Part shown: piece after piece, positions 9,509 through 61,286 of the stretch
Layout of the letters: every line of letters begins with the position of its first letter
Position numbering within the stretch: position 1 is the first letter of the stretch
Source of the DNA: Spirochaetia bacterium
GTDB lineage: Bacteria > Spirochaetota > Spirochaetia > WRBN01
Assembly (NCBI GenBank): GCA_965249825.1
Contig: CBDFMW010000002.1
Location: 98,644 to 162,643, forward strand
Length of the DNA stretch: 64,000 nt
Reading direction: 5' to 3'
Program-made: the position numbers and the translations under genes
The notes under the pieces: generated by a model
Seen by the model: the letters and a program-made list of their open reading frames with translations, nothing else
What the model was told of the DNA's origin: nothing
Databases searched by the model: none

Positions 9509-10750
9509 TCAATTATCGGCTGGTTCTAAAAGTGTCTTAATCTTAGATAGCGATTCTCGCACCAAAAGCGGGTCATGACTACTGAGCAACACCAGCTGAG
9601 ACGTTGCAGTATCTGATGGATTGATAAAGACGACCACCACCTGCTGGGCATTAATTAACAAGGGGAGATCGCTTACGCTTGTCTCTGGAGTTAGCGTGAG
9701 AAGTGGGATGGCAGAATGGGAGAATAACTGGCTTATTAATGCGGTTAAATCGGGTTCACTCCACAGGGTTAGGCTTGAACCAAATGCTAAGATAATGGTG
9801 TAGTAGAGGGCAATTTGGTATCCGCCTTCAGTATCTTCATTCACCTGTTTGCTGGGCAACACACTTTCAATATGCTCGGTGTTAATGAGCATCGAGCGTT
9901 GGTTGTGAGCATTTAGGAATGGGCGAAATAAAGGGAAAGCGTTGCTAAGCAAGTTGGTGAAGTAGAGCATGGTGTCGCTCACCTGAAATGCGTCACCAGT
10001 GCCGATAAAGGTGAGCTTGGTGAGCCACACAATATCATCGCTTTGGGGTAATAGATGGCGCCCGGTGGTAATAGAGGTAACCATGGCTGGGTTAATAAAG
10101 CGCTCTTCGGTGGCTTTATCGCCCACATAGAAAAACTGCACTTTAATAAAAGCTTTCGCCGTTAAGGTGATCAGCTCGTCAATACTTGTGCTCACAAAGA
10201 GTTCATGCCCTTGTTGAATAAAGCCAAGGCGTGAGCCGTATATGATTTGACCGTTTGCATCTATCATAGGGCAATGAGCAATCCAGCGGATGAGACTGGT
10301 TTGCACCAACACTTGCGCCCCATGTGGCATGGTCAGCGATACAGTGTCTGCCTTAAAAAATAGTTGCAACTGGTGCAAGGGTGTGGTGATGAGCAGGGCA
10401 GGATGGTCGTCGGTAAAATGACATTCACTGTGCCAACTGATGAGACGCTGGCGCTTGTTGGTTGTTTTTTGGGCTAAAATGTAGGTAACAAGCGAGCTGT
10501 TGATAAGTACGGGGTCGCCTGCACCATCAATGGCATCAATAAAATGCGATGACATTGCCATGATCGTGTGACGAATCTGCTCGATAGGTTCGGTGATCAG
10601 CAGAGTACTCATACGAAAAGAGAGCGAGAGAACACTGCAACGCTGCATTGAGCCGTCATTTTTTTCTATAAGCGTGGGCTTAACACTGTTAATGTGGGCA
10701 ATATTAACCAAGATAGCTTGCTCTTTGAGCGGGTGCAACATTACAAACAT
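9509..10750 (-). CDS. hypothetical repeat-motif family protein (413 aa)
   Basis: AILVNIAHINSV, PVLINSSLVTYI, ERFINPAMVTSI, SMLINTEHIESV, VVVFINPSDTAT motif copies. Confidence 0.55.
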   Translation of the reverse strand: MFVMLHPLKEQAILVNIAHINSVKPTLIEKNDGSMQRCSVLSLSFRMSTLLITEPIEQIRHTIMAMSSHFIDAIDGAGDPVLINSSLVTYILAQKTTNKRQRLISWHSECHFTDDHPALLITTPLHQLQLFFKADTVSLTMPHGAQVLVQTSLIRWIAHCPMIDANGQIIYGSRLGFIQQGHELFVSTSIDELITLTAKAFIKVQFFYVGDKATEERFINPAMVTSITTGRHLLPQSDDIVWLTKLTFIGTGDAFQVSDTMLYFTNLLSNAFPLFRPFLNAHNQRSMLINTEHIESVLPSKQVNEDTEGGYQIALYYTIILAFGSSLTLWSEPDLTALISQLFSHSAIPLLTLTPETSVSDLPLLINAQQVVVVFINPSDTATSQLVLLSSHDPLLVRESLSKIKTLLEPADN

Positions 10751-10845
10751 GGGGATGGGGTCGTCTCGCTTTTACTTTAATTTTAGTGAAAAGCACAGGG
10801 GGTGTCAACTCAGTTAAACATTACCTCGAGCTTCATAGTAGAAGT

Positions 10846-12207: not shown

Positions 12208-12209
12208 TA

Positions 12210-13418
12210 TTACTCTTTAGCCGACCACAGGGCATTCATCACCAAAAAAATGCTCTCTTGCACGGTGATATGGTCATTCATCTGCAATAAATAGATCTCT
12301 GTGGTTTCAGGTGAACTGTGGTGTGTGGTGAAACAGTGTGATACCATGCACGGATTAATTAAAATTTCAAGACCATCTAGTAAATGTAAGGAGATAAACA
12401 CTTTATCTTTATGACTAAAAAAGGCCTTAATATGGGACCAACTCTCTTTTATAGGAGTGGGGTGTTTTCCGTCTACAAAAAAGAGACTTAAGTAGGGATT
12501 AGGCGATCCATAAGTATTATAGCCCTGTTGCACCACACTCACTAGATCAAGGTTTACCAAAATATCTGTGTGTAAAATGTGGTGTAGCCTAAGAAAATTG
12601 TGTTCTAAAGATAAAAGGGAGGTGAAATAACTTATATTGTTCACTACCGCTTGCGTGTGCTGCACGCCAATAAAATGAAGTAAAGCCCCACCCGTTCCCA
12701 ATAACGGGGCGAGTGGTTCAATAAAGGTGATGAGTTGAGGATTAACCCACAATAATACATCATCTTGATAAGATTTTGGCTGAACAAGAGATGTGCCACG
12801 TAACTTTAACCAAGTGTTTTCAATAAGGCTAGGGGACGCGGACACCAGCGGTGCTTTTAGTGAGACATCGGTAAAGTGTAAAAGGTTTTTTGGGATAGAG
12901 TCATTGCCGACTGCACTTACGGTATGATTTATTGAGAGTTGAGTGGCTAAAGAAAACCCCAGTAAACAGAGCTCTTGTGAGTGCAATAGAGCTATAGAAC
13001 AAGGTATTCTCTGTTGTTGTAGATAAAGATTAAGCGAGTTCAAATCTTGTTTAATGTAAAGAAAATGATTTTGATAGGCCATTACTAACTGCGTATGCTC
13101 ATGTATCACGTCTGTTCTAGAATTTCTTTGGTAGCTTGTAATGCCCAAACTCATTAAACTAAAATTAACTAGAGCAAGGTTATTGTCTATGGTTGTCAAC
13201 TGAATAAAGGCAGGCACTTGCTCTTTAAAAAGAGTACAGAGAGATGAAAATGACTCTTTAACCAAGATTTGGGCATCACGATTGGTAAAGGTGATAAGAC
13301 TAAGCTCCTCTATTTCTCCTGAAAGGTGATTTTGCTGGTAATGTGGTATTACCACCGTGCAAGAGGCAGGATTAATCATCAATATGCCTAATGTCATGCT
13401 GTTTAATGGAATAAACAT
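12210..13418 (-). CDS. hypothetical repeat-motif family protein (402 aa)
   Basis: LALVNFSLMSL, LLWVNPQLITFIEP, LEILINPCMVSHC motif copies. Confidence 0.55.
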   Translation of the reverse strand: MFIPLNSMTLGILMINPASCTVVIPHYQQNHLSGEIEELSLITFTNRDAQILVKESFSSLCTLFKEQVPAFIQLTTIDNNLALVNFSLMSLGITSYQRNSRTDVIHEHTQLVMAYQNHFLYIKQDLNSLNLYLQQQRIPCSIALLHSQELCLLGFSLATQLSINHTVSAVGNDSIPKNLLHFTDVSLKAPLVSASPSLIENTWLKLRGTSLVQPKSYQDDVLLWVNPQLITFIEPLAPLLGTGGALLHFIGVQHTQAVVNNISYFTSLLSLEHNFLRLHHILHTDILVNLDLVSVVQQGYNTYGSPNPYLSLFFVDGKHPTPIKESWSHIKAFFSHKDKVFISLHLLDGLEILINPCMVSHCFTTHHSSPETTEIYLLQMNDHITVQESIFLVMNALWSAKE

Positions 13419-13462
13419 ATTACTATTCCATATGAGGCAAGGAGGTGAACGTAGTCATGGCA

Positions 13463-14206
13463 TTACTTAGAGGTGGAATCATCAGCATTGGGGTTTACAG
13501 CCTGGCAACTGAGCATCTTAATGAGATTACTAAATATCTCTTGATGATGAGTACTTACCTGTGGCCCATCACAACGCTTTAACCAGTAATTAATAAAATT
13601 AAGGCTAGGGTGAGAAAACTCTTCACTGAGCAGCTCCTCTAACCGTTGCATATACTCGATTTCAGTGAGTTTTTGAAGCATTTTAGTAGGGTGAAAGGAG
13701 TGCTTGTGCAACTGCTCTAACAGCGTTAAATTAGCAGGTTTTAAGGAAGTCAAATCGACACTGGTAAAAGGTTTTTTATCCAAAATGCCTTCTTCGCTAA
13801 AGTCTGCAAAAAATTGATACACACAGCCGTTCGTAAGGATGGCTAACTGAGGTTTTTTAAAGGCAAACACAGCGTGCATCGTGTTGTAGCAGGTTTCAAA
13901 ATCTTCATCCACATACACACCCATTACAAAAAGGGGTTCTTCATGTTGCCAAATAATATAGTCAATGTGGTAGGTGTGCGTTTGGGCTTGCGGGCTTACC
14001 GCATTCATTACGCTTGAGGTGTCTAGCACCAATCCTCCCAGCATAATCGCCATGGGGCTGGTTTCAGGCAGGTTCAGATCCACTTCTAATGGACCACAGT
14101 GCACTTCATCAGGGTTGGTAATATCATAACCTAGGGCGGTTAAAAAGGGTTGCACCAGCACCGCATTGATGCTGGCTTTGGTGGTGAGATCGTGCTGAAA
14201 ACGCAT
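13463..14206 (-). CDS. hypothetical protein (first gene of minus-strand operon)
   Basis: 247-aa ORF; start codon lies inside a perfect 43-bp tandem duplication. Confidence 0.45.
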   Translation of the reverse strand: MRFQHDLTTKASINAVLVQPFLTALGYDITNPDEVHCGPLEVDLNLPETSPMAIMLGGLVLDTSSVMNAVSPQAQTHTYHIDYIIWQHEEPLFVMGVYVDEDFETCYNTMHAVFAFKKPQLAILTNGCVYQFFADFSEEGILDKKPFTSVDLTSLKPANLTLLEQLHKHSFHPTKMLQKLTEIEYMQRLEELLSEEFSHPSLNFINYWLKRCDGPQVSTHHQEIFSNLIKMLSCQAVNPNADDSTSK

Positions 14207-14263
14207 GTGTTTTTCGGTTATTGGTGGTGAGATCGTGCTGAAAACGCATGTGTTTTTCGGTTA
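14178..14263. repeat. perfect 43-bp tandem duplication (2 copies) spanning the start codon of ORF 13463..14206
   Basis: ttggtggtgagatcgtgctgaaaacgcatgtgtttttcggtta at 14178-14220 and again at 14221-14263. Confidence 0.95.
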
Positions 14264-14331
14264 TTTGTTGAATACTGGCGTATAAATTCATGCACCAACC
14301 CTCTTTTTTTGTGGTTTTTTCTTATTGTAAC

Positions 14332-15264
14332 CTAATCATTAAACTTTGTCAGGACTATTTCTCTAATATCGTCAGAAATACTGACAAGCCATGAGGCTAA
14401 TTGGTCGGTAGTCTGCAAATAGGTGAGAACCTCTTCTTGTCTTTCTTTAAGAACGCCAAAAATATGCGGTTTACCATCGGCTGTTTTGCCACCAGCGGTA
14501 AAAATATCTCTAAAATTCGGGCAGATGCAGTTGAACCGTTCTAGCAACAACAAAGAGGCTTTATCAAACTTATTGGCTTTGTTGGTGAAAATTTCAGGGC
14601 ATTCCGCCAATGCCATCACGATAAAGGTTTCTTGAGTGGGCTTGTCCAGTGTTCGCCATTGGCGCAAGATAGGCGTTGTGAATTGCTGGTCATCCATCCA
14701 CCACAGGGTTTCTCCGTCTTTTAATGTGTGAGAAAAGTATTCTTTCAATTGCTGTACTTTGTTTTCGTCCGTACGAAATTGATCGTAGGAGGTGTTCAGT
14801 TTATGAAAAATAGTATCGGTGGGGGATAGCGACATATCTATTTTATAGCGTGGTGAATGGGTAACCCCAATCGAGGATAAACACTCTTCATAGCGTTTGT
14901 AGCGAATATTTCTTGATCCACCGAGCTTACCAAATAGCATGTAAATATGCTGCAACTCCGCTACCCGATTGGTTTCCATAATACTGTTGCCTAGGCTTGT
15001 CCAGCCATCTTTTTGGGTAACTTTTACCTCCACGCCAAAGTTGCCGCTGGCTATAATATCAGGAAAGGATAAAGCCCCTGTTTGCTCAATATCCCAGTTA
15101 CCTTGGCTTGCCTCTTTCATTAGGTCGACCACAAACTGCTCAAAGCTTTGCCCCGTCATCTTGGCACTGAGGCTGTTAATAGTTTGTAAACCCAGTTGTT
15201 TACTTTTTTCTAATAGCTGAATGAACTCAGGTTCAGTATGCACTCCTTTTGCTATGTGAATCAT
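14332..15264 (-). CDS. Type II restriction endonuclease (PD-(D/E)XK fold), cognate to adjacent C5-MTase
   Basis: PD-ExK motif SFPDIIASGNFGVEVKVTQK; likely start Met at 15262-15264 forms ATGA overlap with MTase stop, GGAG RBS upstream. Confidence 0.6.
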   Translation of the reverse strand: MIHIAKGVHTEPEFIQLLEKSKQLGLQTINSLSAKMTGQSFEQFVVDLMKEASQGNWDIEQTGALSFPDIIASGNFGVEVKVTQKDGWTSLGNSIMETNRVAELQHIYMLFGKLGGSRNIRYKRYEECLSSIGVTHSPRYKIDMSLSPTDTIFHKLNTSYDQFRTDENKVQQLKEYFSHTLKDGETLWWMDDQQFTTPILRQWRTLDKPTQETFIVMALAECPEIFTNKANKFDKASLLLLERFNCICPNFRDIFTAGGKTADGKPHIFGVLKERQEEVLTYLQTTDQLASWLVSISDDIREIVLTKFND

Positions 15265-16211
15265 TTCAAATACTCCATCACTTGCCGTGCTATATGCCAC
15301 GCAAACACAGGCGGCACGGCATTGCCAATTTGTTTATAAGCGGCTGAGGTGGAGGGAAGAAAAATAAAATCATCAGGAAAGGACTGCAAGCGAGCGGCTT
15401 CGCGTGCCGATAAGCGTCGGCTACCATCCCACAAAAATTCAATGTTGCCGTGGTGTTCAGCCCGCATGGCTGGAGCTATTTTATTAGCAGCAATGTTGGT
15501 GTTGCCTTGTCCATTGGTGCGTTTAGCCTTGGACCACACATGATTGATAAGTTTGTTTTCAGGCAAGTTTACCAAATCATGAAGAGCTTCTTGAGCTGTT
15601 ACATGTTGGATGCAGGTGGGGGCAAGGTGTGTAAAAAAAGTATTAGGATAGGCGGTTTGTTTTAAGCCCACAATAATCACCCGGCTACGCGATTGAGGCA
15701 CGCCAAAGTCTGCCACTTGATACAAATGGTAATTCACATTGTAGCCTAGTGCCGTAAAATCATTCACAATCGCTTTAATGGCTTGCCCCTGCTCAATGTC
15801 TAAAATACCTTTCACATTTTCGGCAATGAAAATGTTCGGGTTGGTCAGGCTAATCACTTTTAGCATGGCGGTGTAGAGTAAGCCCCGTCGGTCCTCAAAG
15901 CCTTGGCGTTTGCCAGCATAGGAGAACGGTTGACACGGAAAGCCCCCTAACACCACATCAGCTTGTGGGGGAATGACCCCTGAGTTGATGCCATCCCAAA
16001 CATCACCACTAAAGGGGGCGTGGTTAAAGTTGTGTTGGTAGGTTAAGCAGGCGTTTTTTTCAATGTCGCAGGCAAAAAGCGTGTTAAAATTGTGCTTGGC
16101 ATAGTGCTTGGCATAGTGCTTGGCATAGTGCTGGTTCAAAAAAGAAAAATCGCCACGAAAGCCTAAATCTAAGCCACCAGCCCCTGAAAAAAGAGATACA
16201 ATATTAGGCAT
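15261..16211 (-). CDS. DNA (cytosine-5)-methyltransferase
   Basis: Motif I FSGAGGLDLGF, motif IV GGFPCQPFS, motif VI ENVKG, motif X QIGNAVPPV; start ATG 16209-16211 preceded by AGGAG. Confidence 0.9.
   Translation of the reverse strand: MPNIVSLFSGAGGLDLGFRGDFSFLNQHYAKHYAKHYAKHNFNTLFACDIEKNACLTYQHNFNHAPFSGDVWDGINSGVIPPQADVVLGGFPCQPFSYAGKRQGFEDRRGLLYTAMLKVISLTNPNIFIAENVKGILDIEQGQAIKAIVNDFTALGYNVNYHLYQVADFGVPQSRSRVIIVGLKQTAYPNTFFTHLAPTCIQHVTAQEALHDLVNLPENKLINHVWSKAKRTNGQGNTNIAANKIAPAMRAEHHGNIEFLWDGSRRLSAREAARLQSFPDDFIFLPSTSAAYKQIGNAVPPVFAWHIARQVMEYLK
16094..16129. repeat. in-frame 12-bp tandem repeat x3 (gcttggcatagt) encoding (HYAK)3 inside the MTase
   Basis: Three exact copies between MTase motifs I and IV. 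Confidence 0.9.
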
Positions 16212-16293
16212 AAAACTCCTGTTGGTATGTGAGTGAAATCGATATACACAAAGCATTATAGCACCTAAAGAGTAACAAGACTATTCGGTTACA

Positions 16294-26728: not shown

Positions 26729-26766
26729 AATGGGTAAGTCTCCAGCAAGGTAGAGGGTGAAAAGAA

Positions 26767-26838
26767 GCCAAAACTGGGAATTGAACCCAGGACCTACTCG
26801 TTACGAGTGAGTTGCTCTACCGCTGAGCTATTTTGGCG
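26767..26838 (-). tRNA. tRNA-Thr (anticodon CGU)
   Basis: Cloverleaf on minus strand: acceptor GCCAAAA/UUUUGGC, T-loop GGTTCAATTCC, anticodon loop CU-CGU-AA; one A.C mismatch at 31-39. Confidence 0.75.
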
Positions 26839-27815
26839 TATAACCCCTTCACCATAAAATATAACGCTCTTTTTGTCAAGGGGAAAGGTTTTGGTTGACT
26901 AACGACTAAATGTTTTTTGATTTCATCATAGACTATAGCAGGAAGAGCGGTTTTAGTGAAAGCTTTATCTAGTTTCTTAGTTTCATTCTTTTGAGCCTTT
27001 TCTAATTTTTCAAAGGAGGATTGCAAGTAAGGTGATTTTTTACTTATTTTTTGCATAGCATCAAAAATCGATTGTAAAGATCTGGTGTTCTTCGCAAATC
27101 TTTCACCGTATATGCGTTGATTGTGAGCACAGTGATTTCTTAGTGTAGAGAATGCCCACAAATCCTTTTCGAGTTTTTTTATATCTTTGTTTAGGTGTTT
27201 TGTGTTTTTGGGTTGACCTAGAAGTACAACGATGTTTTCTTTTAAGTCCTGCGGTAAAATTTGGTAGAACTTACTGAGTTTGCCAAATGTAAGTTCATTA
27301 ACCAATATCCATATCGGAACATAACCATGATTTTTTGGATCGAGATAGTGGGTTATATAGGGGATTTTTGTTCTGCTATTTTTAATTATAGTCTGAAATT
27401 CTTTAATTACCTCTTTTGTTTCTTTATCTGTAGGATTAGGATAGTTCTTCGGGTCGCAAAAAAATGTGTCTTTATAGCTGTCGTGCGCATGATTCTTAAA
27501 GTAGTGAGCCACTTGATAGCCAATGATATTTTTAAGAAATGCTTCAATATATAGCAACTGGGTTAGGTAGAGTTTACGCAAAGCACCATCAAATTGATAG
27601 AGGGTATGGATTTGAAAGAGTGATGTTCCTGTATGATATTGGTTCGTACGAGTATCCGCTAGAAATGGTTTACCAAAGGAGTTAATGAGCGTGTAGTAGT
27701 TACATTGTTTTAAAATAGCTAAATCAAAGTTATAATTTTTGGGTATCCCTGATAGATTCCGTTTGTAAAGCTGTTTTAGTTGCTCTTCATGAGTTAACGG
27801 AGGTTTTTCTGCCAT
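26817..27815 (-). CDS. Abi_2 family (AbiD/AbiF-like) abortive-infection HEPN protein
   Basis: 332 aa; hallmark STLRNHCAHNQRIY (R-x4-H) and Abi_2 N-terminal helical region; 3' end overlaps tRNA-Thr 5' end. Confidence 0.8.
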   Translation of the reverse strand: MAEKPPLTHEEQLKQLYKRNLSGIPKNYNFDLAILKQCNYYTLINSFGKPFLADTRTNQYHTGTSLFQIHTLYQFDGALRKLYLTQLLYIEAFLKNIIGYQVAHYFKNHAHDSYKDTFFCDPKNYPNPTDKETKEVIKEFQTIIKNSRTKIPYITHYLDPKNHGYVPIWILVNELTFGKLSKFYQILPQDLKENIVVLLGQPKNTKHLNKDIKKLEKDLWAFSTLRNHCAHNQRIYGERFAKNTRSLQSIFDAMQKISKKSPYLQSSFEKLEKAQKNETKKLDKAFTKTALPAIVYDEIKKHLVVSQPKPFPLTKRALYFMVKGLYAKIAQR

Positions 27816-28362
27816 TTATATCAAACCTCCTTATCGAGACAAAAAAAACATCCCGATTTTCAAGAGGTTATCTTGAAGGATAAGGATGTCCCCACCAAAT
27901 TCATGGTGTCTCTTATCTTAAGTATAGCCTAAATAGGGCAGGGTGTCAAGCATGGATTCTGTAAGAATCTAATAAACTGGTTGTGAGGGGTGGAAGACAA
28001 GCTAGACGAAATAGTGTACACTCTTTATAATTTGAACGCTGAAGAACGAGCGGTGGTGAGTGGGGGGCGGAGCTGATGGGTGGGGAGTTGACAAGCGTGC
28101 TTAATTAGCGTATCATTAGGGTGGAAGGATTTTGGTTACTGCATGTTAAGTTTTATTCTTAATGAATAAGAGGGAGATGCGTTTTGAAATCCGGATTCTT
28201 TAATATATAATATTAAAATGACGGATTTTAGAATTAAGAACGAGGCTAAGTAATATTGGTCTTTAAGCAAGGTAGTTGAGAAACACTATTGGATTTACTG
28301 GGTTCAACACGGTAACAACAAAAAATCTCTATAAGACAAAGCCCGCCTTTTGTGGGCTGTTG

Positions 28363-29181
28363 TCATGTGTGCCTTAATCCATCATTTAAATAAATGTTCA
28401 CATGACTTGCCTTGATGCGTACTTTTTCCTGTGTTCTTCCATTGAAAAAATCGCTATCAATATTTCCATCACTTTCTATTTGCACATCATAGTGATGACC
28501 TGCACCGTAACGATACCCAAAGCGATAGTGACCACTTAAATAGTAATGAGCGGAATCGGTAGACTTGTTGTTTAAGTCCCCATGCTTGTGGTTACCATAA
28601 AAAAATAGGCGTTTCTTACGATCCTGATACCCTTCCTTTTTAGCTGAGTTTGCCTTGACAAATTTAAAAGGATTGGCTATCGTAGGATTTAACTCTTCTT
28701 TGCCGAGATACACAGCCTTTAGGTGTGCTTCAAAAGCAAAGCCATTTATTTTTTCGTCAAAATTTTTGATTGGCAATAAGTAAACGTGATTATTTCTTAG
28801 TTGCTTCGCTCGTATGTTGTACTCCACAGCTTTTGATATAGCCGTAGACCATAACTCCTCATTTCTATAGTGCTCACTAGATAGTGGTTCTATAGAGCGG
28901 ATAGAGGCAAAAGGAAAAAATAACTCTAACAAAACATCGCAATTCGCATCCTTGTGTTTTACATAGATAAGCTGAATAAACTTGTATGTATGTCTTTTAA
29001 CAAGAGGCAAGAGTAAGTCTTTAAAATACTTATTAATAGGTTCTACGGTGTATTTCGGACTAATTTCATTTACTGGCATAAAAGCAAAATCATGATTTGG
29101 ATGTTTTTTTTCTACTGCCTCAGGTAATTTAACACAGAGTGTTTTATTTAGCCCTGCTACAATAACTAACGTTTTAGCCAT
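28363..29181 (-). CDS. hypothetical protein (AT-rich islet, downstream gene of 2-gene module)
   Basis: 272-aa ORF, markedly lower GC than flanks, 3 bp after upstream ORF stop; hairpin terminator at ~28337-28360. Confidence 0.5.
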   Translation of the reverse strand: MAKTLVIVAGLNKTLCVKLPEAVEKKHPNHDFAFMPVNEISPKYTVEPINKYFKDLLLPLVKRHTYKFIQLIYVKHKDANCDVLLELFFPFASIRSIEPLSSEHYRNEELWSTAISKAVEYNIRAKQLRNNHVYLLPIKNFDEKINGFAFEAHLKAVYLGKEELNPTIANPFKFVKANSAKKEGYQDRKKRLFFYGNHKHGDLNNKSTDSAHYYLSGHYRFGYRYGAGHHYDVQIESDGNIDSDFFNGRTQEKVRIKASHVNIYLNDGLRHT

Positions 29182-29184
29182 TTG

Positions 29185-29640
29185 CTATTTATGCTCTCCC
29201 AGCAAACTCTCTATCAGCCATACTGGAAGTTGTTTATCCTTATGTTCACTGGGGATACGGTCAAGCACTTTTTGTAATAAAGAAACATCGTGAGCCTTTT
29301 TCTTTGTTTTGACAGAACTTGGCACACTCATTTGATTATCAGTGCCATTTAAAAGTTCGTCTATGCGTGTTTCGTCCTCGTCTTTGGCAACGGCAATAAC
29401 TAGAGGGTTACTGTTTGCATGAACAAGTTTTTTTAAAAATGTATGTTCTTTGATTTTATCTTTAAGCTTCTCTTCGCCTAAAAAATCATCTAGGGAATGT
29501 TTTCCATATTCAGAAATCAATCTATTTCCAAGCTCTGCCGCCAATAGAACTTTAATGGGTTTTCCATCTTTGTTGTATTTATCACTATTGTAAAGCTTTT
29601 CTGTAAACCTTCTGAACTTTTCGATATTTAACTCACTCAT
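29185..29640 (-). CDS. hypothetical protein (AT-rich islet, upstream gene of 2-gene module)
   Basis: 151-aa ORF, Lys/Glu-rich. Confidence 0.5.
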   Translation of the reverse strand: MSELNIEKFRRFTEKLYNSDKYNKDGKPIKVLLAAELGNRLISEYGKHSLDDFLGEEKLKDKIKEHTFLKKLVHANSNPLVIAVAKDEDETRIDELLNGTDNQMSVPSSVKTKKKAHDVSLLQKVLDRIPSEHKDKQLPVWLIESLLGEHK

Positions 29641-29963
29641 TTATCTTTATCCTTTTTATCTAAAATAATCCGATCTTACTTTATCATCATTAGGAGGTTA
29701 TGTCAAATCTTCATGAGATATATGGTATACTATAAGATATATAATACACTTAATAACCAAGGATATAAGAACATGACACTTTTAAAATGGCTATTGAAAC
29801 CATTCCGTAAAGAAGAGATGCCGGCTGAACTCTGCGATATTTCAGCAAGCTTAACTGCTTTTGCCGAGGCTCATCCTGAGGTTTTAAAACGTTCTAAGGA
29901 GATTGGCGAACGGTGGATGAGAGAAAGTCAGAAAAGCTAGACTTACGGTAGGAGAGGGCGAAC

Positions 29964-30404
29964 ATGACATACAAAGCCATTATTTGGTTAGAGAGCAACG
30001 GGACCTACAGCGTGATGTTCCCAGATTTTCCCAACTGCTTTAGCATGGGTGATAACCTAGCCGAAGCACGGCACTATGCCCATGAAGCACTCGATTTGCA
30101 TTTAGAAGACAACCCTGTCAAGGGTTTTGCTCGTCCATCGCTCACGGTGAATAAAGACGCATTAGGGGTAGCCTCCGAGTATAGCGAAGTGTGTGATATC
30201 AAAGTGAGCAAGAACAAGGCGTTTGCTCTTAAATTGCGTTGGTTACGCCAAGATTTAGGGCTAACGCAAAAGACCCTAGCCGAGTTGTTGCATATCGGTT
30301 TATATGCCTATCAACGCCTAGAAAACCCTCGATTAAGCAACCCTACCATGAAAACAATCGAACAACTAGAAGCGGTGATTCACCAAGAGTTGGTTACTGT
30401 TTAA
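29964..30404 (+). CDS. HicB-family antitoxin-like protein with C-terminal XRE-type HTH
   Basis: N-terminal YSVMFPDFPNCFSMGDNLAEARHYAHEAL (HicB/UPF0150 fold); C-terminal LRWLRQDLGLTQKTLAELL HTH. Confidence 0.65.
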   Translation: MTYKAIIWLESNGTYSVMFPDFPNCFSMGDNLAEARHYAHEALDLHLEDNPVKGFARPSLTVNKDALGVASEYSEVCDIKVSKNKAFALKLRWLRQDLGLTQKTLAELLHIGLYAYQRLENPRLSNPTMKTIEQLEAVIHQELVTV

Positions 30405-37098: not shown

Positions 37099-38644
<1,546 letters not shown>

Positions 38645-44295: not shown

Positions 44296-44739
44296 ATGAC
44301 AATTATGATCACCTCTTTGCAACAATACACGGATGTTGCGCAGCAGTTAGCCTCCTTGCTTGAGGCTAAAAAGATTAAAGCCCATTGGGTGCGCCTGCAA
44401 CAAACGACCACGAATAGTGTGGAGTTAGGGATGGCAAGTGCTCGGCTATTGGCAGATTCTGGCAATATGGTTATCTTGTTAGATGATTATGGCATTGGGA
44501 GTTTTAATGCACTAAATAAAACCGTGGATGCTGTATGCGCTAACTGTTATGATGAACATTCAGCTCGGATGACCCGCAAGCACAACAATGCACGGGCACT
44601 CACTTTGGCTATGGAAATTTTAGCACCCACTTTGGTGTCGTCGATAGCCTTTGGTTTTGCTTCTACTAAGTATGAATTAGGACGGGATGAAGTGCGTGCG
44701 AGCATGCTGCGAGAGCTTTTACAGGGGGAAGAGAAGTGA
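44296..44739 (+). CDS. lacA: galactose-6-phosphate isomerase subunit LacA-like (RpiB/LacAB family)
   Basis: GIGSFNALNKTVDAV, YDEHSARMTRKHNNAR, C-terminal RDEVRASMLREL resembling LacA. Confidence 0.65.
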   Translation: MTIMITSLQQYTDVAQQLASLLEAKKIKAHWVRLQQTTTNSVELGMASARLLADSGNMVILLDDYGIGSFNALNKTVDAVCANCYDEHSARMTRKHNNARALTLAMEILAPTLVSSIAFGFASTKYELGRDEVRASMLRELLQGEEK

Positions 44740-45245
44740 AAAAAATAGCCATTGGTTGCGATCATGTGGGGACTGAAAGTAAAAATAGAATGATCATTTC
44801 GCTGCGAAAGCAGGGCTATGAGGTCATCGATTGTGGCACAGCGAGTTTAGTGAATACCCACTACCCTGTGTATGGATTACGTGTGGCAAGTGCGGTGGTT
44901 AATAATCATGCTGATCTGGGCATTGTTATTGGTGGAACGGGCGTGGGCATTTCTGTGGCAGCCACCAAGGTCAAAGGGGTTCGTGCAACACTAGCAGGTG
45001 ATCCGCTTACAGCCGAGGTAGCACGCAGGCAGTATGATGCTAATGTGCTAGGGCTGGGCGGGCATATCGTGGGTTTTGGCTTAATGGAGGCGATTATTCA
45101 AACCTTTATTAACACCTCTTTTGACAGCAAGTATAAAAACAATGTGACGGAACTCAATAACCTTTTACCAGGTGGCATAAGCAAAGAGCAGCAGTTTAAA
45201 GCCTATGTGGCCCGCTGGGAGGAAGGACATTTTGGAGGTGTCTAA
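44736..45245 (+). CDS. lacB: galactose-6-phosphate isomerase subunit LacB-like / ribose-5-phosphate isomerase B family
   Basis: MKKIAIGCDHVG, GTGVGISVAATKVKGVRA, ARRQYDANVLGLGG; 4-bp overlap with lacA. Confidence 0.7.
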   Translation: MKKIAIGCDHVGTESKNRMIISLRKQGYEVIDCGTASLVNTHYPVYGLRVASAVVNNHADLGIVIGGTGVGISVAATKVKGVRATLAGDPLTAEVARRQYDANVLGLGGHIVGFGLMEAIIQTFINTSFDSKYKNNVTELNNLLPGGISKEQQFKAYVARWEEGHFGGV

Positions 45246-45355
45246 TGGTAGAGGTACGACCTTGATAACCATCGACTAACGATGATACAGTGGTGTGTTA
45301 AAGGGTGCCTGAGCAACCTAAATAGAGCAGTATGGAATTAGGAGAGAAGAGGATT

Positions 45356-45622
45356 ATGGTGAGTCAAAAAGTGGTGATTACCGACCCAGTAGGGTTGCAC
45401 GCTCGTCCTGTGGGCGTTTTAGTTGAAGTAGCAATCCGATTTAACGCTGAGGTTAGTTTTAGGTGCAATAACAAAGAGGCTAGTCTTAACTCAGTGCTAA
45501 GGGTTATGGCTCTATCTGTGGGTGAGGGTGACAGCGTAGAAGTTTTGGCGCATGGTGATGATGAGCAAGACGCTATTGATGCTGTGATTGCGACGATGGT
45601 TGAGAGAGGTTTAATAGACTAG
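45356..45622 (+). CDS. ptsH: phosphocarrier protein HPr
   Basis: VGLHARPVGVLV (active-site His), regulatory Ser region SLNSVLRVMALSV; start at Met 45356 with AGGAGAGAAGAGG RBS. Confidence 0.8.
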   Translation: MVSQKVVITDPVGLHARPVGVLVEVAIRFNAEVSFRCNNKEASLNSVLRVMALSVGEGDSVEVLAHGDDEQDAIDAVIATMVERGLID

Positions 45623-45726
45623 GATTCCGCTTATATAGACTCTTGATAAATCTTTTGCTATAGAGTATATTTAAATTATTTTCGCAAGATATTGTATCAT
45701 TAAAGATTGAGATTTAAGCGGGGTGT

Positions 45727-48700
45727 ATGATGAGAAACCTATTAACCCAAGGGATGGCAATTGGTATTGTCAATAGAGGGGAGGCCGCCTTTCGTTTCGT
45801 GCGTGCCCTGAAAGAATATAATTTGTTACACGAGACACAGTTTAAGAGTGTGGCATTCTACATAGATTCTGAGCGTGAAGCTGTTTTTGTGCAAGAGGCT
45901 GATGAAGCCTATGCGTTGAGTAGCTTTTCCGCTTTTTCTACGGTTAAGGGGTCTCCTTATTTATCTTATTCATTGTTGTTACAGGCCTTGCAACAAACAG
46001 GCTGTGGAGGATGCTGGGCTGGGTGGGGTTTTGTAAGTGAAGATGCTGACTTTGTGCAGGTGCTTGAGGAAAACAATATTGTGTTTTTAGGTCCTACTGC
46101 TCATACCATCAACTTAGTTGGTGATAAAATCAGTAGTAAGCAGCTGGCACATGATAGTAAAACCCCTATCTGCCCATGGTCCCAAGGGCCTGTGGGTTCG
46201 CTTGAGCTGGCGTATCAAGTGGCTGATCGCATTGGGTATCCCGTGATTGTCAAAGCCAGCAATGCTGGTGGTGGGCGTGGTATACGTTTTGTGTTTGATC
46301 AACCCATGATGGCTGAGGCTTACGCCTCCGCAGTGGAGGAAACCAAGAGGGTAACCGGCAATGATCTTGTGTTTATTGAGCGCTTAGTGGCTCAGGGTCA
46401 TCACTTTGAGGTGCAGGCTTTAGCAGATTATCACGGGGTGATTAAAACCTTTGGTGTGCGCGACTGTAGTGTGCAACGTAAAAATCAAAAAATCATCGAA
46501 GAAACTCCTCCATCACAGCTAGAGGCGGAGCAATTGGTTGAAATGCAGGCTGCCGCCACACGCTTGTTACATGAGGCAAACTATCAAGGGGCGGGGACTG
46601 TAGAGTTTATTTATGATATGGATCATAAAGAGTTTTACTTTATGGAAGTGAATGCACGTTTACAGGTAGAACACCCGATTACTGAAGAGCTTTTTGGTAT
46701 TGACTTAGTGGGTGGACAGATTGATGTAGCCCGCGGTTTGAGCATTGCTCACTACAATGAGCAGCCCTTGGGGCATGTTATGGAACTCCGCCTGAATGCT
46801 GAAGACCCGATGCGCGACTTTAAACCAGCTGGTGGCAAGGTAACACGCTTTCGCCCAGCAGGGGGTATTGGTGTGCGTATTGATTCAGGTATTCAAGCGG
46901 GCTCTACCATTCCGCCTGACTTTGATAGCATGGTAGCTAAGATTATTGTGCGAGCGGCGAGTCGTCCGCAGGCTTTGCAACGATTAAAACGAGCCATTCA
47001 AGAAACGGTTATTGAAATTGAAGGTGGTACCACTAACCGTCTGTTTGCTTTACATCTCCTTGAGTTGCCTGAAATGATTAAGGGTGGCGTGTCGACTCGT
47101 TTTGTGGAAGAGTATTTAAGCACCATGGAGGCAACAGCGTGCTATGCTGAGCCTGCCTTGGCAGCAGCGGCCGCTGAAATTTATTTAGAAAAAATGGCAC
47201 AAGAACGTGCGGTGTTTACGCAAGAGGTGCTGGTATTGGGTGTGCCACGTTCGTTGCAAAAAAATGATGTGCAAGAGTTGAGTTTTGTGCATCAACAGGC
47301 ACTTTATCAGGTGCAGTTGCGCTACTTGGGCAATAATGAGTTCTGTCTTACACACCAAGGGTTGAGCCATTTTTTTAGTTATACACACAGTCAAGGCCAA
47401 CAGGCGGTGCTAGAGTTAAACAGCACGCTCTATGAGATAGCTTGTAGTCAAGTGGGTGGTATGCTACGTATAGAGGTGAACCAGAGTGAAGTACACTTCA
47501 TTGATAGCGACTTTGGTGGTGGACTGAAAGCTAGTGCACCGGGATTGGTGTTAAAAGTGAATGTGGCTGAAGGGCAAACTGTTAAAAAAGGTGAATTGCT
47601 TTTAGTTATGGAAGCTATGAAGATGGAAAGTCCGGTGTATGCACAAGTTGAGGGCGTTATTAACGAAATTGTGGTGCGTGCCGGACAACAGGTGATGAGT
47701 GGGCAAACGCTCATCAAGATTGAGAGCAAAGAGCAGGCGGCCTCTACCCCAATGGCTAAGCCAACCCTCTTTCTTATCCCTTCCTCTATGTGCATCCCAT
47801 TAATATTGGAGTATCAAGCACTGTTCTTAGGATACGATGCCCACCCTAGTTTGGTAGAATTGGTGAAGATGAAGGCGGAAGATTTAGAGACTGTGTTGAG
47901 CTACTTTGCACCCATACACCAATTGTTTTCTACTGAGCCTTTGGTAAGTGTTGTTGGCAGTGCCTCGTTGAGCTGGGCGGATCATCTCACCAGCTATGCG
48001 CACAGTTTTGATCGAGCTAAAGTGGCACTACCGACTCTATTTGAACAGAAGCTTAATGAAGTGGTTGTATTATACGGGGTTGAGTTAAGTGATGAGTCTG
48101 CTCAAAATGAATTTCTTTATCGGCTCTATCGCGCATTTCTAGCTACCAAGCAGCAAACACAAGTGGTGTATGCCTTAATGGTAGGGGTGAAAAATGTTGA
48201 TCGCCAAGACAATCAGCGGTTGCGACGTTTGGTGGGACAACTGGCGGTGCTAGTGCCTGAGCTAACCACTTTGGCGCGTGATTTTAACTACACGTTTTTT
48301 ATTAAGAAACAACTTGCGAGTGCTTATAATAATAAGCTGATGAATTTCAAGCGTTTACTACAGATTACCGAGACTTATCCACAGCACCGGCCGCAGTTAC
48401 TTGAACGTGCCTTGGGCTATGGGGTAAGTAGTGAATATGACTTGGCTAGCCGATTGTTTCACAAAGAATCATGCGACTTGGCACAAGATGTGCTGGTTTC
48501 GCGACTTTATCGTCATTGCCAGCTTGAGCTCGGGGCAAAAACAGACACCACGCTTGAATTCACTTACACCAGTCATGAGGGTCGTCGTTTGACGGGTTGT
48601 TTGAGTCATATTGCAACGCAGTTGAATTCAGTGCAAAAGTATGATGCTTTACTTTTGGTGAGCGAGCGAGAGATAGGGGTGGAACAGCTGGCATTGACCT

Positions 48701-51015
48701 TCGAAAGTTATGGTCGACTGGTTTTAATCACGCTCGATAAGACTCAACACGTGCTTAAGTATAGCAATTTTTTACCCACAGCTTCAGGTTGGATGCTGGA
48801 TGGTAATCGGTTGTATTTTAGCCCACTCGTCTATCGTGAGTTACGGCTTTATCGCTTGGATGCCTTTACTAAGCAAGTGAGCAGCCTTACCCCTACAATG
48901 GGTTTAATCTTAGCAACCTCCAAAGATAGCGAGAAAGATGAGCGGTTTGTGCTTTATATGAGTGTAGAGTCAATGCGTCTAAGCCCCCCACAAGGTGGGC
49001 AAGAGATGGTGCAACTCTTTGGGTTAGAAGAATATCTAACTGAGGGTATTCAAGCCCTGCGTATGGCGCAAGATAAGCGTAAAAAGCGGCTGTATTGGAA
49101 CCGTGTGGTTATTTTTGTTTATCCGCTTATTGAGGCTCCGCTTGAGATGTTAGAGGCTTATGCGCTAAAGCTTTGCCATAACATTTTAGACCCCAGTTTA
49201 GGGGTAGAGCGTGTGATTCTCCATGCTCGATTGAAAGGGTTAGGTGAGCGTGAATTGGTATTATCGCCTACCGCTATTGCAGGGCAGTTTACTTTTGAAA
49301 TTCGTGAGCCAAAAGTAAGTAGATTACGTCTACAAGATTCCTATGAAGTGAAGGTGATGAAGGCACACACTCGTGGGATGTTCTATCCCTACGAGCTGTT
49401 ACAAATGCTCAGTTTGGGTCAATTTGGCTTTGAGAGCAGCACTTTTACTGAGTATGATTTGAGTTATGATTGTGCCATTGGTTGCTGTGCAGTAGAACGC
49501 CCTTATGGGCAGAACAAGGCCCATATTGTGTTTGGTGTGATTGAAACCCTTCATTTAGGGCAAAACTTGAAACGAGTTATTATTCTTTCTGATGCAACGG
49601 CTGATATGGGATCTCTCGCTGAACCTGAATGTCGGCGTATCAATGCAGCCTTAGATTTGGCAAATGAGCTGGGTGTGCCTGTGGAGTGGTTGCCGTTAAG
49701 TTCTGGGGCTAAAATTACGATGGATAGTGGTACAGAGAATTTGGACTGGACCGCCCAGACTTTACGCCGCATTATTAACTTTACCCAAGATGGTGGGGAA
49801 ATTAATGTGATTGTGAGTGGAATTAACGTAGGTGCCCAGTCGTATTGGAACTCTGAGGCCACCATGTTGATGCACTGCCGTGGATTATTGATTATGACTG
49901 GACAGGGAGCTATGTTGCTCACCGGTAAAAAGGCTCTCGACTTTGCCGGATCAGTCTCGGCGAGCGATAACTTAGGCATTGGGGGTGCACAGGCTATTAT
50001 GTTACCTAATGGCGAGGCACAGATGTATGCTGCTACCGTAAAAGAGGCGTATCAGCTATTAATGCACCACTACCATACTTTTTATGCGCAGAAGGGGCAG
50101 CGCGTGTCTTCCATAATGACGCAAGACAGTTACGAACGTAATGTGGCCTTGTCACCCTATAAAGATCATTTGCAACAAGGTTTTAATTATTTAGGTGATA
50201 TTTTTAGTGCCGAATTTAATGGTGAACGGAAAAAACCCTTTGCTATGGCACAGCTGATGCAAGCCTTGTGTGACTCAGATTGCACGCCGCTTGAGCGAAT
50301 GGCGAACATGCGCGATGCCGAAACAGCATTGGTTTATCAAGCCCGCGTTGGTGGACATGCCTGTGGTTTGATTGGTATTGAGAGCCAAAGTTTGGTTAGA
50401 CATGGCTTGGTGTCCCATGATGGTCCTACTAGTTATGCAGGAGGAACATTGTACCCATTGTCCAGTAAGAAGATTGCACGTGCCATCAATATTTTTTCCG
50501 ACCGTGTGCCGTTAGTGGTTTTGGCTAATTTATCCGGTTTTGATGGGTCACCTGAATCATTGCGCAACCGCCAGTTAGAGTGGGGTGCTGAGATTGGTCG
50601 ATCGATGGTGAACTTTAAGGGACCTATCTTGTTTGTTGTTGTGGGTCGTTACCATGGTGGGGCTTATGTAGTTTTCTCTAAAATGCTGAACGAAAATATT
50701 CGTAGTTATGCCTTAGAGGGGTCGTTTGCTTCGGTTATTGGAGGGGCGCCTGCGGCTGCGGTTGTTTTCTCGGCTGAAGTGAACAAGCGCGTGTATGGTG
50801 ATGAGCGCTATAAAAAAGCTCAGCAGGATGGCAACACGCAGCCTGCTACACTGAGAGCGTTGTTCTCCGAGTTGCAACAAGAAAAGCGGCGAGAATTAGC
50901 CTTTGATTTTGACCAAGTGCACAGTGTGGAACGAGCACAACGGGTAGGATCAATTGATGAAATCATTTCACTTAGCGAATTACGTCAAAAGGTGGTAGAT
51001 TTTATCAAACCATAA
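45727..51015 (+). CDS. single-chain multidomain biotin-dependent acyl-CoA carboxylase (BC - BCCP - central - carboxyltransferase), eukaryote-type ACC architecture
   Basis: 1762 aa; ATP-grasp biotin carboxylase (EVNARLQVEHPITE), biotinyl-Lys motif EAMKMESPV, CT beta-like (IILSDATADMGSL...) and alpha-like (VVGRYHGGAYVV) domains. Confidence 0.8.
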   Translation: MMRNLLTQGMAIGIVNRGEAAFRFVRALKEYNLLHETQFKSVAFYIDSEREAVFVQEADEAYALSSFSAFSTVKGSPYLSYSLLLQALQQTGCGGCWAGWGFVSEDADFVQVLEENNIVFLGPTAHTINLVGDKISSKQLAHDSKTPICPWSQGPVGSLELAYQVADRIGYPVIVKASNAGGGRGIRFVFDQPMMAEAYASAVEETKRVTGNDLVFIERLVAQGHHFEVQALADYHGVIKTFGVRDCSVQRKNQKIIEETPPSQLEAEQLVEMQAAATRLLHEANYQGAGTVEFIYDMDHKEFYFMEVNARLQVEHPITEELFGIDLVGGQIDVARGLSIAHYNEQPLGHVMELRLNAEDPMRDFKPAGGKVTRFRPAGGIGVRIDSGIQAGSTIPPDFDSMVAKIIVRAASRPQALQRLKRAIQETVIEIEGGTTNRLFALHLLELPEMIKGGVSTRFVEEYLSTMEATACYAEPALAAAAAEIYLEKMAQERAVFTQEVLVLGVPRSLQKNDVQELSFVHQQALYQVQLRYLGNNEFCLTHQGLSHFFSYTHSQGQQAVLELNSTLYEIACSQVGGMLRIEVNQSEVHFIDSDFGGGLKASAPGLVLKVNVAEGQTVKKGELLLVMEAMKMESPVYAQVEGVINEIVVRAGQQVMSGQTLIKIESKEQAASTPMAKPTLFLIPSSMCIPLILEYQALFLGYDAHPSLVELVKMKAEDLETVLSYFAPIHQLFSTEPLVSVVGSASLSWADHLTSYAHSFDRAKVALPTLFEQKLNEVVVLYGVELSDESAQNEFLYRLYRAFLATKQQTQVVYALMVGVKNVDRQDNQRLRRLVGQLAVLVPELTTLARDFNYTFFIKKQLASAYNNKLMNFKRLLQITETYPQHRPQLLERALGYGVSSEYDLASRLFHKESCDLAQDVLVSRLYRHCQLELGAKTDTTLEFTYTSHEGRRLTGCLSHIATQLNSVQKYDALLLVSEREIGVEQLALTFESYGRLVLITLDKTQHVLKYSNFLPTASGWMLDGNRLYFSPLVYRELRLYRLDAFTKQVSSLTPTMGLILATSKDSEKDERFVLYMSVESMRLSPPQGGQEMVQLFGLEEYLTEGIQALRMAQDKRKKRLYWNRVVIFVYPLIEAPLEMLEAYALKLCHNILDPSLGVERVILHARLKGLGERELVLSPTAIAGQFTFEIREPKVSRLRLQDSYEVKVMKAHTRGMFYPYELLQMLSLGQFGFESSTFTEYDLSYDCAIGCCAVERPYGQNKAHIVFGVIETLHLGQNLKRVIILSDATADMGSLAEPECRRINAALDLANELGVPVEWLPLSSGAKITMDSGTENLDWTAQTLRRIINFTQDGGEINVIVSGINVGAQSYWNSEATMLMHCRGLLIMTGQGAMLLTGKKALDFAGSVSASDNLGIGGAQAIMLPNGEAQMYAATVKEAYQLLMHHYHTFYAQKGQRVSSIMTQDSYERNVALSPYKDHLQQGFNYLGDIFSAEFNGERKKPFAMAQLMQALCDSDCTPLERMANMRDAETALVYQARVGGHACGLIGIESQSLVRHGLVSHDGPTSYAGGTLYPLSSKKIARAINIFSDRVPLVVLANLSGFDGSPESLRNRQLEWGAEIGRSMVNFKGPILFVVVGRYHGGAYVVFSKMLNENIRSYALEGSFASVIGGAPAAAVVFSAEVNKRVYGDERYKKAQQDGNTQPATLRALFSELQQEKRRELAFDFDQVHSVERAQRVGSIDEIISLSELRQKVVDFIKP

Positions 51016-51115
51016 TACAGAGAGTTCAAATGGTGTGAATAAAAATAATTGGGCAGGGTGAAAACCCTGCCCAATTATTAAACTATATGAGTAGGCATCA
51101 CCGATACTCTTTATT

Positions 51116-60184: not shown

Positions 60185-61286
60185 GTGCTAAAAGATTTAT
60201 CTTTGCCGATACGCAAGCTAGAACAAGACATTAAACTCACTTGGGGGCGGCTTTGACCCCTCCAAGTTACAGCGTGAAGTTTTTGAACTAGAGCGTAAAA
60301 GCGAGGATCCCTCTTTTTGGTTAGATAATCAATCAGCTGGTAAGTTATTGGTTCAGGTTAAACGTCTACGCGATAGATATGAGCCTTGGCAAATATTAGA
60401 AGCACAGCTTCAAGATTTAATGACACTGTTTGAATTGGCTACGGAGGCTGCTGATGAAACGCTGGGAGGCGAGATAGAAACACTCATTACTCAAATAACT
60501 TGCGAATTTTTACGTTTAACCACGCTGGAAAGATTGAAGGAAGAGGCTGACCCTTTGTCATCCTTTGTTACCATTCATGCAGGGGCTGGTGGCACAGAGG
60601 CCTGCGACTGGGTGCGTATGCTGTATCGTATGTATGACCGCTACGCTCAGCGCAAAGGCTTTGCGGTGGAAGTATTGGATATGCAAGAAGATGAAGGTGG
60701 CTTGCGTGAGATTAGCCTCCGGATTGATGGGGACTTTTCTTACGGCTTTTTAAAGGGTGAGACGGGCATTCATCGACTGGTACGCATTTCACCTTTCGAT
60801 TCAGCAGCACGTCGGCACACCAGTTTTGCCTCGGTGTACGTTTCCCCCGTGTTAGATGATACTATTGAAATTAACATTAGACCAGATGACATCCGCGTGG
60901 ACACCTATCGGGCCTCAGGGGCTGGTGGGCAGAAGGTGAATAAAACTTCCTCTGCGGTGCGACTCACGCATTTTGAGTCAGGAATTGTGGTGGCTTGCCA
61001 GAGCGAACGCAGCCAATTTAAAAATAAAGACATTGCTTTTGACATCTTGAAAAGTCGCCTGTACGACTTTTATAAAGAACGGCGTGATGCCGAACGAGCC
61101 AGCAAGGCGGCAGAAAAGAAGGAGATTGGGTTTGGGCATCAAACGCGCAACTATGTGTTTCAGCCCTATACCATGGTGAAGGATGTGCGTACCAAGGCTG
61201 AGACCACAGCGGTAGCGGCCGTTATGGATGGCGACATAGAGATCTTTATTGATGCTTACTTAGAGATGCTTTGGGCACAGGAATAA
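60185..61286 (+). CDS. prfB: peptide chain release factor 2 with programmed +1 frameshift
   Basis: GTG start 60185; frame-0 ends ...TGG GGG CGG CTT TGA C (shift site 60251-60257, SD-like GGGGG upstream); downstream frame gives SPF, RASGAGGQKVNKTSSAVR GGQ motif. Confidence 0.85.

Follow-up and report, generated by a model that had tools for sequence, protein, structure and literature searches.

The 64,000-nucleotide stretch analysed here at its full length (the window; contig CBDFMW010000002.1, positions 98,644 to 162,643, of the Spirochaetia bacterium assembly GCA_965249825.1) carries at 45727..51015 on the plus strand a gene that, with a probability of about 0.8 in our estimate, encodes a functional eukaryote-type single-chain biotin-dependent acyl-CoA carboxylase, most likely serving as the acetyl-CoA carboxylase (ACC) of a small-genome spirochaete related to Entomospira. 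The protein is an ordinary member of a known and widespread family with a characterised actinobacterial member. What is new lies at the level of the family: its unreported dominance in Spirochaetota, the bacterial spread of a central domain described as specific to eukaryotes, and what this may mean for the origin of eukaryotic ACC.

The gene is complete and consists of one uninterrupted ATG-started open reading frame (ORF) of 1762 codons plus stop, as given by the ORF list and its translation; an identical protein (P0001) is already on record from a 1.63-Mb contig. On the 1762-aa protein Pfam recognises Biotin_carb_N (12-128), CPSase_L_D2 (133-340), Biotin_carb_C (353-462), Biotin_lipoyl (605-665) and Carboxyl_trans (1284-1758). 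Together with the alignments described below, these give in one polypeptide the order that characterises eukaryote-type multidomain ACCs: biotin carboxylase (BC, aa 1-470), a BC-CT interaction region (BT, 471-598), the biotin carboxyl carrier protein domain (BCCP, 599-667), a linker (668-689), a central domain (about 690-1204) and carboxyltransferase (CT, 1205-1762). ORF and Pfam order thus bear out an earlier interpretation made from the letters alone (the sequence-only reading), which had proposed a 1762-aa single-polypeptide BC-BCCP-CT carboxylase with the layout of eukaryotic ACC. Neither of the two contrary outcomes it had named was encountered: the Pfam order is BC-BCCP-CT and not BC-CT-BCCP, and against a mis-assembled fusion of adjacent genes stand the identical recorded protein and full-length colinear homologues. 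The 120 best matches of a database search were 1751-1945 aa long, with 41-52% identity where the local alignment covers the whole query, and more than 100 homologues of 1750-1900 aa were full-length and colinear; the named ones include Entomospira culicis (52%), E. entomophila (50%), Oceanispirochaeta, Marispirochaeta, Thiospirochaeta and many Spirochaetia metagenome-assembled genomes (MAGs). When a whole-length family profile was compared with the PDB, yeast ACC (5csk) was the best match (E 1e-158). Domain comparison to yeast and human ACC, long-chain acyl-CoA carboxylase (LCC) and pyruvate and urea carboxylases, as the sequence-only reading had advised, sides with eukaryotic ACC by PDB profile matches, Pfam and size. 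Pyruvate and urea carboxylases have the order BC-CT-BCCP, with a non-CoA CT in the middle that is TIM-barrel HMGL-like in the pyruvate enzyme and allophanate-hydrolase-like in the urea enzyme. This type was rejected for the window protein because its BCCP precedes the CT and the CT is of the acyl-CoA type (Carboxyl_trans, PF01039).

The BC domain (aa 1-470; 45727..47136, +) is of the ATP-grasp type and is recognised by Pfam (Biotin_carb_N, CPSase_L_D2, Biotin_carb_C) and by NCBIfam, whose accC and pyruvate carboxylase N-terminal models match this part at E 1e-123 to 1e-140. The accC equivalog (E 1.6e-123) reaches 412.8 bits and stays under its 626.5-bit cut-off, and the models for pyruvate and urea carboxylase, whose matches fall chiefly on BC (best stretch 12-470), score far under their cut-offs. 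The BCCP domain (aa 599-667; 47521..47727, +) is covered by Pfam Biotin_lipoyl (605-665, E 3e-15). The EAMKMESPV stretch noticed earlier at about aa 640 is indeed a biotinyl motif, with EAMKME lying at aa 629-634, and its K632 (codon 47620-47622, +) is the biotinyl-lysine predicted from the motif. Residues 14-667 align as a single uninterrupted stretch with residues 13-652 of the alpha subunit of methylcrotonyl-CoA carboxylase (MCC; 3u9s_A), and the family profile likewise aligns with the alpha subunits of propionyl-CoA carboxylase (PCC) and MCC. As alpha subunits of the PCC/MCC type carry BT between BC and BCCP (PMC3199775), this colinearity suggests that the N-terminal 670 aa have the BC-BT-BCCP arrangement of an alpha subunit, and aa 471-598 (47137..47520, +) are assigned on colinearity as the putative BT region. 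In a family alignment of 30 sequences, with homologues 42-52% identical, the BC motifs GDK (K134), K176, GGGRG (181-185), NQK (K255), E293, MEVNARLQVEH (306-316; E307, N309, R311, E315) and RLNAEDP (355-361; R355) are invariant in all 30, as are E629, A630, M631 and K632 of the BCCP motif (AMKM, 630-633). We take the BC motifs as counterparts of the residues active in catalysis in E. coli biotin carboxylase.

Between aa 668 and 1283 Pfam gave no match on the window protein, and the sequence-only reading had described this part as a short central region. Profile comparison, AlphaFold and Foldseek instead reveal, behind a disordered linker (aa 668-689), a folded domain of about 515 aa (aa ~690-1204; linker and domain 47728..49338, +) that resembles the central domain of eukaryotic ACC. 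A 22-sequence profile of the central region (A2) matched in the PDB only eukaryotic ACC central domains, the best being yeast 5i6e (E 6.6e-13), followed by 5csa and 5csk (yeast) and 5i6h and 5i6i (Chaetomium), all colinear and in two blocks. The AlphaFold model of aa 668-1290 (mean pLDDT 82, pTM 0.77) shows 22 disordered linker residues, then helices (model residues 25-260), then a beta-rich and an alpha/beta subdomain; the same plan, helical and then alpha/beta, is found in the yeast central domain (PMC4833862). In a Foldseek comparison of the model with the PDB, the best 30 matches were without exception ACCs of human, yeast or Chaetomium (E 8.8e-19 to 6.7e-8, probability 1.00), and the 31st dropped to E 1e-2. 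Identity to eukaryotic ACC over the central domain is only about 14% in the Foldseek alignments. By profile and predicted structure, aa ~690-1204 are thus a true homologue of the central domain found in eukaryotic ACC. Some homologues of the window protein carry a precomputed match to Pfam PF08326, which we take to be ACC_central; the window protein itself is without it.

The CT domain (aa 1205-1762; 49339..51012, +) is delimited by Pfam Carboxyl_trans (1284-1758) and by a CT profile (A3); its start near aa 1205 follows from the alignment of KVMKAHTRGMFYPYE to the N-terminal end of the crystallised yeast CT construct. At about 560 aa it is smaller than the carboxyltransferase of some 700 aa assumed earlier. 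Against the PDB, A3 matched the CTs of ACCs from fungi, insects and human at E 1e-25 to 5e-18, and the best match outside ACC was the beta subunit of geranyl-CoA carboxylase (GCC; E 1.1e-10), followed by PCC and AccD beta chains (1e-9 to 1e-4). Eukaryotic ACC CTs thereby outscore every beta chain of a two-subunit carboxylase by 15 orders of magnitude, and a single-sequence search ranked the CT matches in the same order. No LCC was found by name among the 47 A3 matches in the PDB at E <= 1e-3. Eukaryotic ACCs and the actinobacterial multidomain ACCs of ~200 kDa, which are homologous end to end including the central region, have been united as CT 'group V' (PMC6491548). Score ranking of PDB matches, used as a proxy, places the CT of the window protein with this group and not with the PccB/AccD5, LCC or AccA/AccD lineages. 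Invariant in 30 of 30 aligned sequences are the motifs GTENLDWT, NVGAQSYW (1367-1374; G1369/A1370), ANLSGFDGSP (1600-1609) and YHGGAYVV (1642-1649; G1644/G1645/A1646). Residues G1369/A1370 and G1644/G1645/A1646 presumably form the oxyanion holes known from PccB-type CTs. The residue after the GAY motif of the C-subdomain is the hydrophobic Val1648. Diacovich et al. reportedly described in 2004 an Ile420 in acetyl-CoA-accepting AccB and an Asp422 in propionyl-specific PccB. We assume that Val1648 occupies this specificity site, where it would be hydrophobic as are Ile420 of AccB and the Val of yeast ACC, unlike Asp422 of PccB. Across the alignment, mean family identity is 58% for BC, 58% for CT, 45% for BCCP, 26% for BT and 22% for the central domain; the high values of BC and CT against that of the central domain point to purifying selection.

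Among characterised enzymes, the closest counterpart is SACE_4237 of Saccharopolyspora erythraea, a multidomain ACC that is homodimeric and essential, carboxylates both acetyl- and propionyl-CoA and feeds fatty-acid synthesis (Livieri et al. 2019; PMC6491548). Likened by its published description, SACE_4237 shares with the window protein a bacterial single polypeptide of ~200 kDa, homology to eukaryotic ACC from end to end including the central region, and a CT that goes with eukaryotic CTs; its host belongs to Actinomycetota, whereas the window protein comes from Spirochaetota and is known from its sequence. Eukaryotic cytosolic ACCs (yeast Acc1, human ACC1/2 and the Chaetomium enzyme; 5csk/5csl, 6g2d, 8xl0, 5i6e-5i6i) have the identical order BC-BT-BCCP-central domain-CT, share the central-domain fold and provide the closest solved CT sequences as well as, with yeast ACC, the best whole-length PDB match. 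Their solved chains count 2218-2407 aa, so that the window protein is ~450-600 aa shorter; the central domain comprises roughly 700 aa in yeast (estimated from PDB residue ranges) versus ~515 here, and the CT ~740 aa versus ~560. The regulatory features of eukaryotic ACC (phospho-loop, citrate-induced filaments, BRCT binding) are not expected in the window protein. In the two-subunit PCC, MCC and GCC and the actinobacterial AccA/AccD enzymes, the alpha subunits are colinear with the N-terminal 670 aa and the beta subunits share Carboxyl_trans (PF01039). These enzymes lack a central domain (PMC4833862), through which the alpha and beta parts are fused here, and the CT of the window protein is only distantly related to their beta subunits (E 1e-10 or weaker). 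For the window protein a dimer would be expected rather than an alpha6beta6 assembly. Four-subunit ACC (AccA, AccB, AccC, AccD) has the same predicted overall reaction and an AccC with which the BC shows likeness, but there the CT is split into AccA and AccD halves, while here all parts are fused and the CT is unsplit. The canonical heteromeric AccABCD was rejected for this protein on its one uninterrupted ORF and the accC score under cut-off. LCC (Tran et al. 2015) is likewise a bacterial single-chain biotin-dependent acyl-CoA carboxylase; it has ~120 kDa, no central domain, a hexameric structure and a CT of another group (III).

The sequence-only reading had called long single-chain ACCs rare in bacteria, a view contradicted by their number and their distribution over several phyla. 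In a scan for the signature peptides of the CT, GTENLDWT and NVGAQSYW, with each species represented by one genome, we found 552 loci, each in a species-level genome, that encode a relative with this signature. The best 80 of the 552 are almost all from Spirochaetota and also hold Candidatus Uabimicrobium (Planctomycetota) and MAGs labelled Brocadiia, Oligoflexia, Fermentibacteria and Neomarinimicrobiota. The central-domain profile retrieved 1234 clusters (50% identity) at E <= 1e-3 and 274 at E <= 1e-30; named examples among them add Blastocatellia, Holophaga and Anaeromyxobacteraceae. No Actinomycetota were present among the homologues whose source names were seen, and the spirochaetal proteins may form a clade separate from the actinobacterial ones. 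Literature searches on single-chain ACC in spirochaetes, on the lipid metabolism of Entomospira and on bacterial 'eukaryotic-type ACC' yielded nothing specific beyond Livieri 2019 and Lombard & Moreira 2011, and no paper on spirochaetal single-chain ACC enzymes was found in the literature searched. The ACC central domain, called unique to eukaryotes in the structural literature, is widespread in bacteria in a more compact form, and bacterial members could be tractable models for the way in which the central domain positions BC relative to CT. With the family present in at least seven bacterial lineages, the proposal that eukaryotic ACC came from Actinobacteria merits re-testing by phylogeny. 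It is conceivable, though we consider it doubtful, that the spirochaetal proteins form with the planctomycete, acidobacterial, myxobacterial and Oligoflexia ones a large ancient clade of central-domain ACCs apart from the SACE_4237 group, and that this clade, not Actinobacteria as proposed in 2019, includes the closest prokaryotic relatives or the donor of eukaryotic cytosolic ACC; the compact central domain of ~515 aa would then approximate the ancestral state.

Some relatives merit separate mention. The phagocytosis-like planctomycete Candidatus Uabimicrobium amorphum (L063) and Ca. Uabimicrobium sp. HlEnr_7 (L077) have the same single-chain ACC type, with a CT 61% identical. A full-length protein of 1794 aa from a Blastocatellia MAG (P0146, MBX7222217.1), found by the central-domain profile, shares 31% identity with the window protein. 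It retains BCCP, central domain and a CT that is well conserved, but in its BC domain the Gly-rich loop and a large part of the ATP-grasp core are missing. Its BC may be degenerate, which hints at a subfamily with another source of carboxybiotin or another function. A 1995-aa protein attributed to the streptophyte alga Mesostigma viride (P0175; EukProt EP00899, P021062) matches the bacterial central-domain profile at E 1e-85 and is 46% identical to the window protein over the CT together with the end of the central domain and 37% over BC-BCCP, with ~100 extra N-terminal residues. Either bacterial sequence has contaminated the algal data, or a eukaryote has gained an ACC of the bacterial type; in the second case the protein would indicate that this ACC type passed from a bacterium to a eukaryote.

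As to function, Spirochaetes have been reported to be without an ACC of the accABCD type (PMC3199775), which makes the single-chain family the obvious candidate for the missing enzyme and gives this old observation a concrete answer: hundreds of spirochaetal genomes have the one-piece enzyme instead. In the 30-sequence alignment the BC residues, the biotinyl-lysine motif and the presumed oxyanion-hole glycines of the CT are all intact. The protein is most likely the organism's only ACC, supplying malonyl-CoA. From SACE_4237, eukaryotic ACC and the reported absence of accABCD in Spirochaetes, we infer that it is biotinylated and homodimeric, that acetyl-CoA is its physiological substrate, that its malonyl-CoA goes to type II fatty-acid synthesis and that the genome has no accABCD. 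In the reaction we propose, biotin protein ligase would attach biotin to Lys632 of the BCCP, and the N-terminal ATP-grasp BC would carboxylate it with MgATP and bicarbonate. The BCCP, tethered between BT and the flexible linker, would carry carboxybiotin to the C-terminal CT, which, active as a dimer, would move the carboxyl group to acetyl-CoA to yield malonyl-CoA, probably with some activity on propionyl-CoA. The ~515-aa central domain might be a non-catalytic scaffold and hinge setting BC and BCCP relative to the CT dimer, as in fungal ACC.

Several observations weigh against this assignment. In a neighbourhood survey in which ORFs were called in 83 loci (L001-L083) and clustered by BLASTP, no conserved functional neighbourhood emerged: the commonest neighbour family, an ABC ATPase, occurs in 15 of 82 loci, and the top ten families (ABC ATPase, histidine kinase, peroxiredoxin, ComEC, DapA, KsgA and others) are unrelated to lipid metabolism. 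There is no fab, other acc, acp, pls or birA gene among the ~50 Pfam-annotated ORFs of the 64-kb window, and tblastn with E. coli AcpP found nothing in the window or the 83 related loci; lipid-synthesis and birA genes were likewise absent from the related loci, and the survey thus brought up no consumer of malonyl-CoA. The degenerate BC of P0146 further shows that membership in the family is no guarantee of activity; the window protein keeps every BC motif. The caution voiced in the sequence-only reading, that the substrate could be acetyl-, propionyl- or long-chain acyl-CoA, is still fair for this particular protein. A carboxylase of broad specificity or with a preference for propionyl-CoA, whose main role would lie outside fatty-acid synthesis (methylmalonyl-CoA for propionate/succinate metabolism, or anaplerosis), would fit the two activities of SACE_4237, the lack of a linked fatty-acid synthesis gene in all 83 loci and the end-to-end alignment of the N-terminal 670 aa with PCC and MCC alpha subunits. 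We nevertheless regard it as unlikely, as the CT matches eukaryotic ACC CTs at E 1e-25 versus 1e-7 to 1e-4 for PCC beta chains, and Val1648, at a position whose role we presume, is hydrophobic and not the Asp of PccB. An enzyme devoted to propionyl-CoA would also leave Spirochaetes with no reported ACC (PMC3199775).

The remaining alternatives carry much less weight than the preferred assignment as a functional single-chain ACC. A catalytically inactive or repurposed relic, kept as scaffold or regulator in a reduced genome, could be imagined from the small genome (1.63-Mb contig), the growth of insect-associated relatives in rich media and the missing ATP-grasp core of the distant P0146, yet all examined catalytic motifs of BC, BCCP and CT are intact and invariant, the catalytic domains are the most conserved parts of the protein (58-65% identity), and a 5.3-kb ORF without any stop in a reduced genome indicates selection; we judge a relic very improbable. 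No better founded is membership in the LCC family of Mycobacterium avium subsp. paratuberculosis and Rhodopseudomonas, to which a single chain in a bacterium and the mention of long-chain acyl-CoA among the possible substrates might lead. LCCs of ~120 kDa have no central domain (PMC4833862) and form the separate CT group III (PMC6491548), whereas the window protein has 1762 aa and a central domain and drew no LCC-named chain among the 47 CT-profile matches in the PDB; LCC was accordingly rejected by size, central domain and CT affinity. We found no point in support of an artefact, be it alpha and beta genes joined by mis-assembly or frameshift or a eukaryotic contaminant, and its probability is negligible. 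The identical protein was recorded independently, the homologues are colinear and full-length and the CT signature recurs in 552 species genomes. Moreover, synteny with three Entomospira chromosomes is kept, the GC content matches that of the window, the contig also bears housekeeping genes of bacterial type and a 16S rRNA gene, and the 'joint' between the two halves is itself a conserved folded domain. Mis-assembly and contamination were rejected on homologues, synteny and GC.

Directly upstream of the ACC gene lie two LacAB_rpiB genes recognised by Pfam (lacA, 44296-44739, +; lacB, 44736-45245, +) and a gene for HPr (ptsH, 45332-45622, +); farther upstream, on the strand opposite to ACC, are RNase Y and YmdB, and downstream follow genes for a TPR protein, a LysM amidase and an NlpC/P60 protein. 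The order YmdB-RNase Y-ACC-TPR-LysM amidase-...-HU-DUF5312-ArgRS is kept in the chromosomes of E. culicis and E. nematocerorum. The lacA-lacB-ptsH block (44296-45622) is absent from these syntenic loci (L002 and L046), where ACC directly follows RNase Y. The position downstream of lacAB-ptsH, emphasised in the sequence-only reading, therefore holds in the window and not as a general context; the adjacency is incidental, a functional link was rejected on the same ground, and the block, which has no relation to the carboxylase, marks an insertion or loss specific to one lineage. Identity to E. culicis is 52% for ACC, within the range of the syntenic neighbours RNase Y (73%), ArgRS (60%), YmdB (47%) and DUF5312 (33%), and the GC content of the ACC gene (0.45-0.47) is the same as in the rest of the window. 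Conserved synteny, identity in the range of the neighbours and matching GC show that the host is a deep relative of the named Entomospira species and that the gene has been vertically inherited within this lineage as housekeeping DNA.

The 104-nt spacer between ptsH and ACC contains a promoter-like site, TTGATA-17-TATATT (45643..45671, +), matching 10 of 12 positions in a consensus scan, and a GGGGTG Shine-Dalgarno-like element was read on the plus strand 3 nt before the ACC ATG; both are pattern matches only. Starting 29 nt past the ACC stop, a perfect palindrome with 16-bp arms, AATAATTGGGCAGGGT gaaa ACCCTGCCCAATTATT (51044..51079), is a candidate transcription stop. Its T-run lies on the minus-strand side only, and E. 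culicis has in its place a minus-strand PseudoU_synth_2 gene that is absent in the window; the hairpin may be a leftover or bidirectional terminator. The promoter-like site and the palindrome, as pattern matches only, would fit a monocistronic ACC unit.

Elsewhere in the window, a complete 16S rRNA gene (37100-38639, +; Rfam SSU_rRNA_bacteria, 1545 bits) stands by itself: a P-type cation ATPase gene comes next at 38800, and with neither 23S nor 5S found in the window, the rRNA genes seem to be unlinked. The gene for tRNA-Thr(CGT) (26766-26837, -) abuts a low-GC block (0.37-0.41) with an Abi_2 (abortive-infection-like) protein, two ORFs without Pfam match and a HicB-HTH antitoxin-like gene; the region 26766-30404 looks like a small island integrated at the tRNA. 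In the region 5513-16256, eight consecutive ORFs of 205-689 aa without Pfam match, seven of them on the minus strand, end beside a C-5 cytosine DNA methylase (15261-16256); they may be lineage-specific surface or mobile genes. The prfB gene for release factor 2 (60185-61286, +) shows at 60251-60257 the CTT TGA C site of classical programmed +1 frameshifting, with a Shine-Dalgarno-like run (GGGGG) before it; its frame 0 starts with GTG at 60185 directly past the ArgRS stop codon, and the listed ORF from 60348 is the +1 frame.

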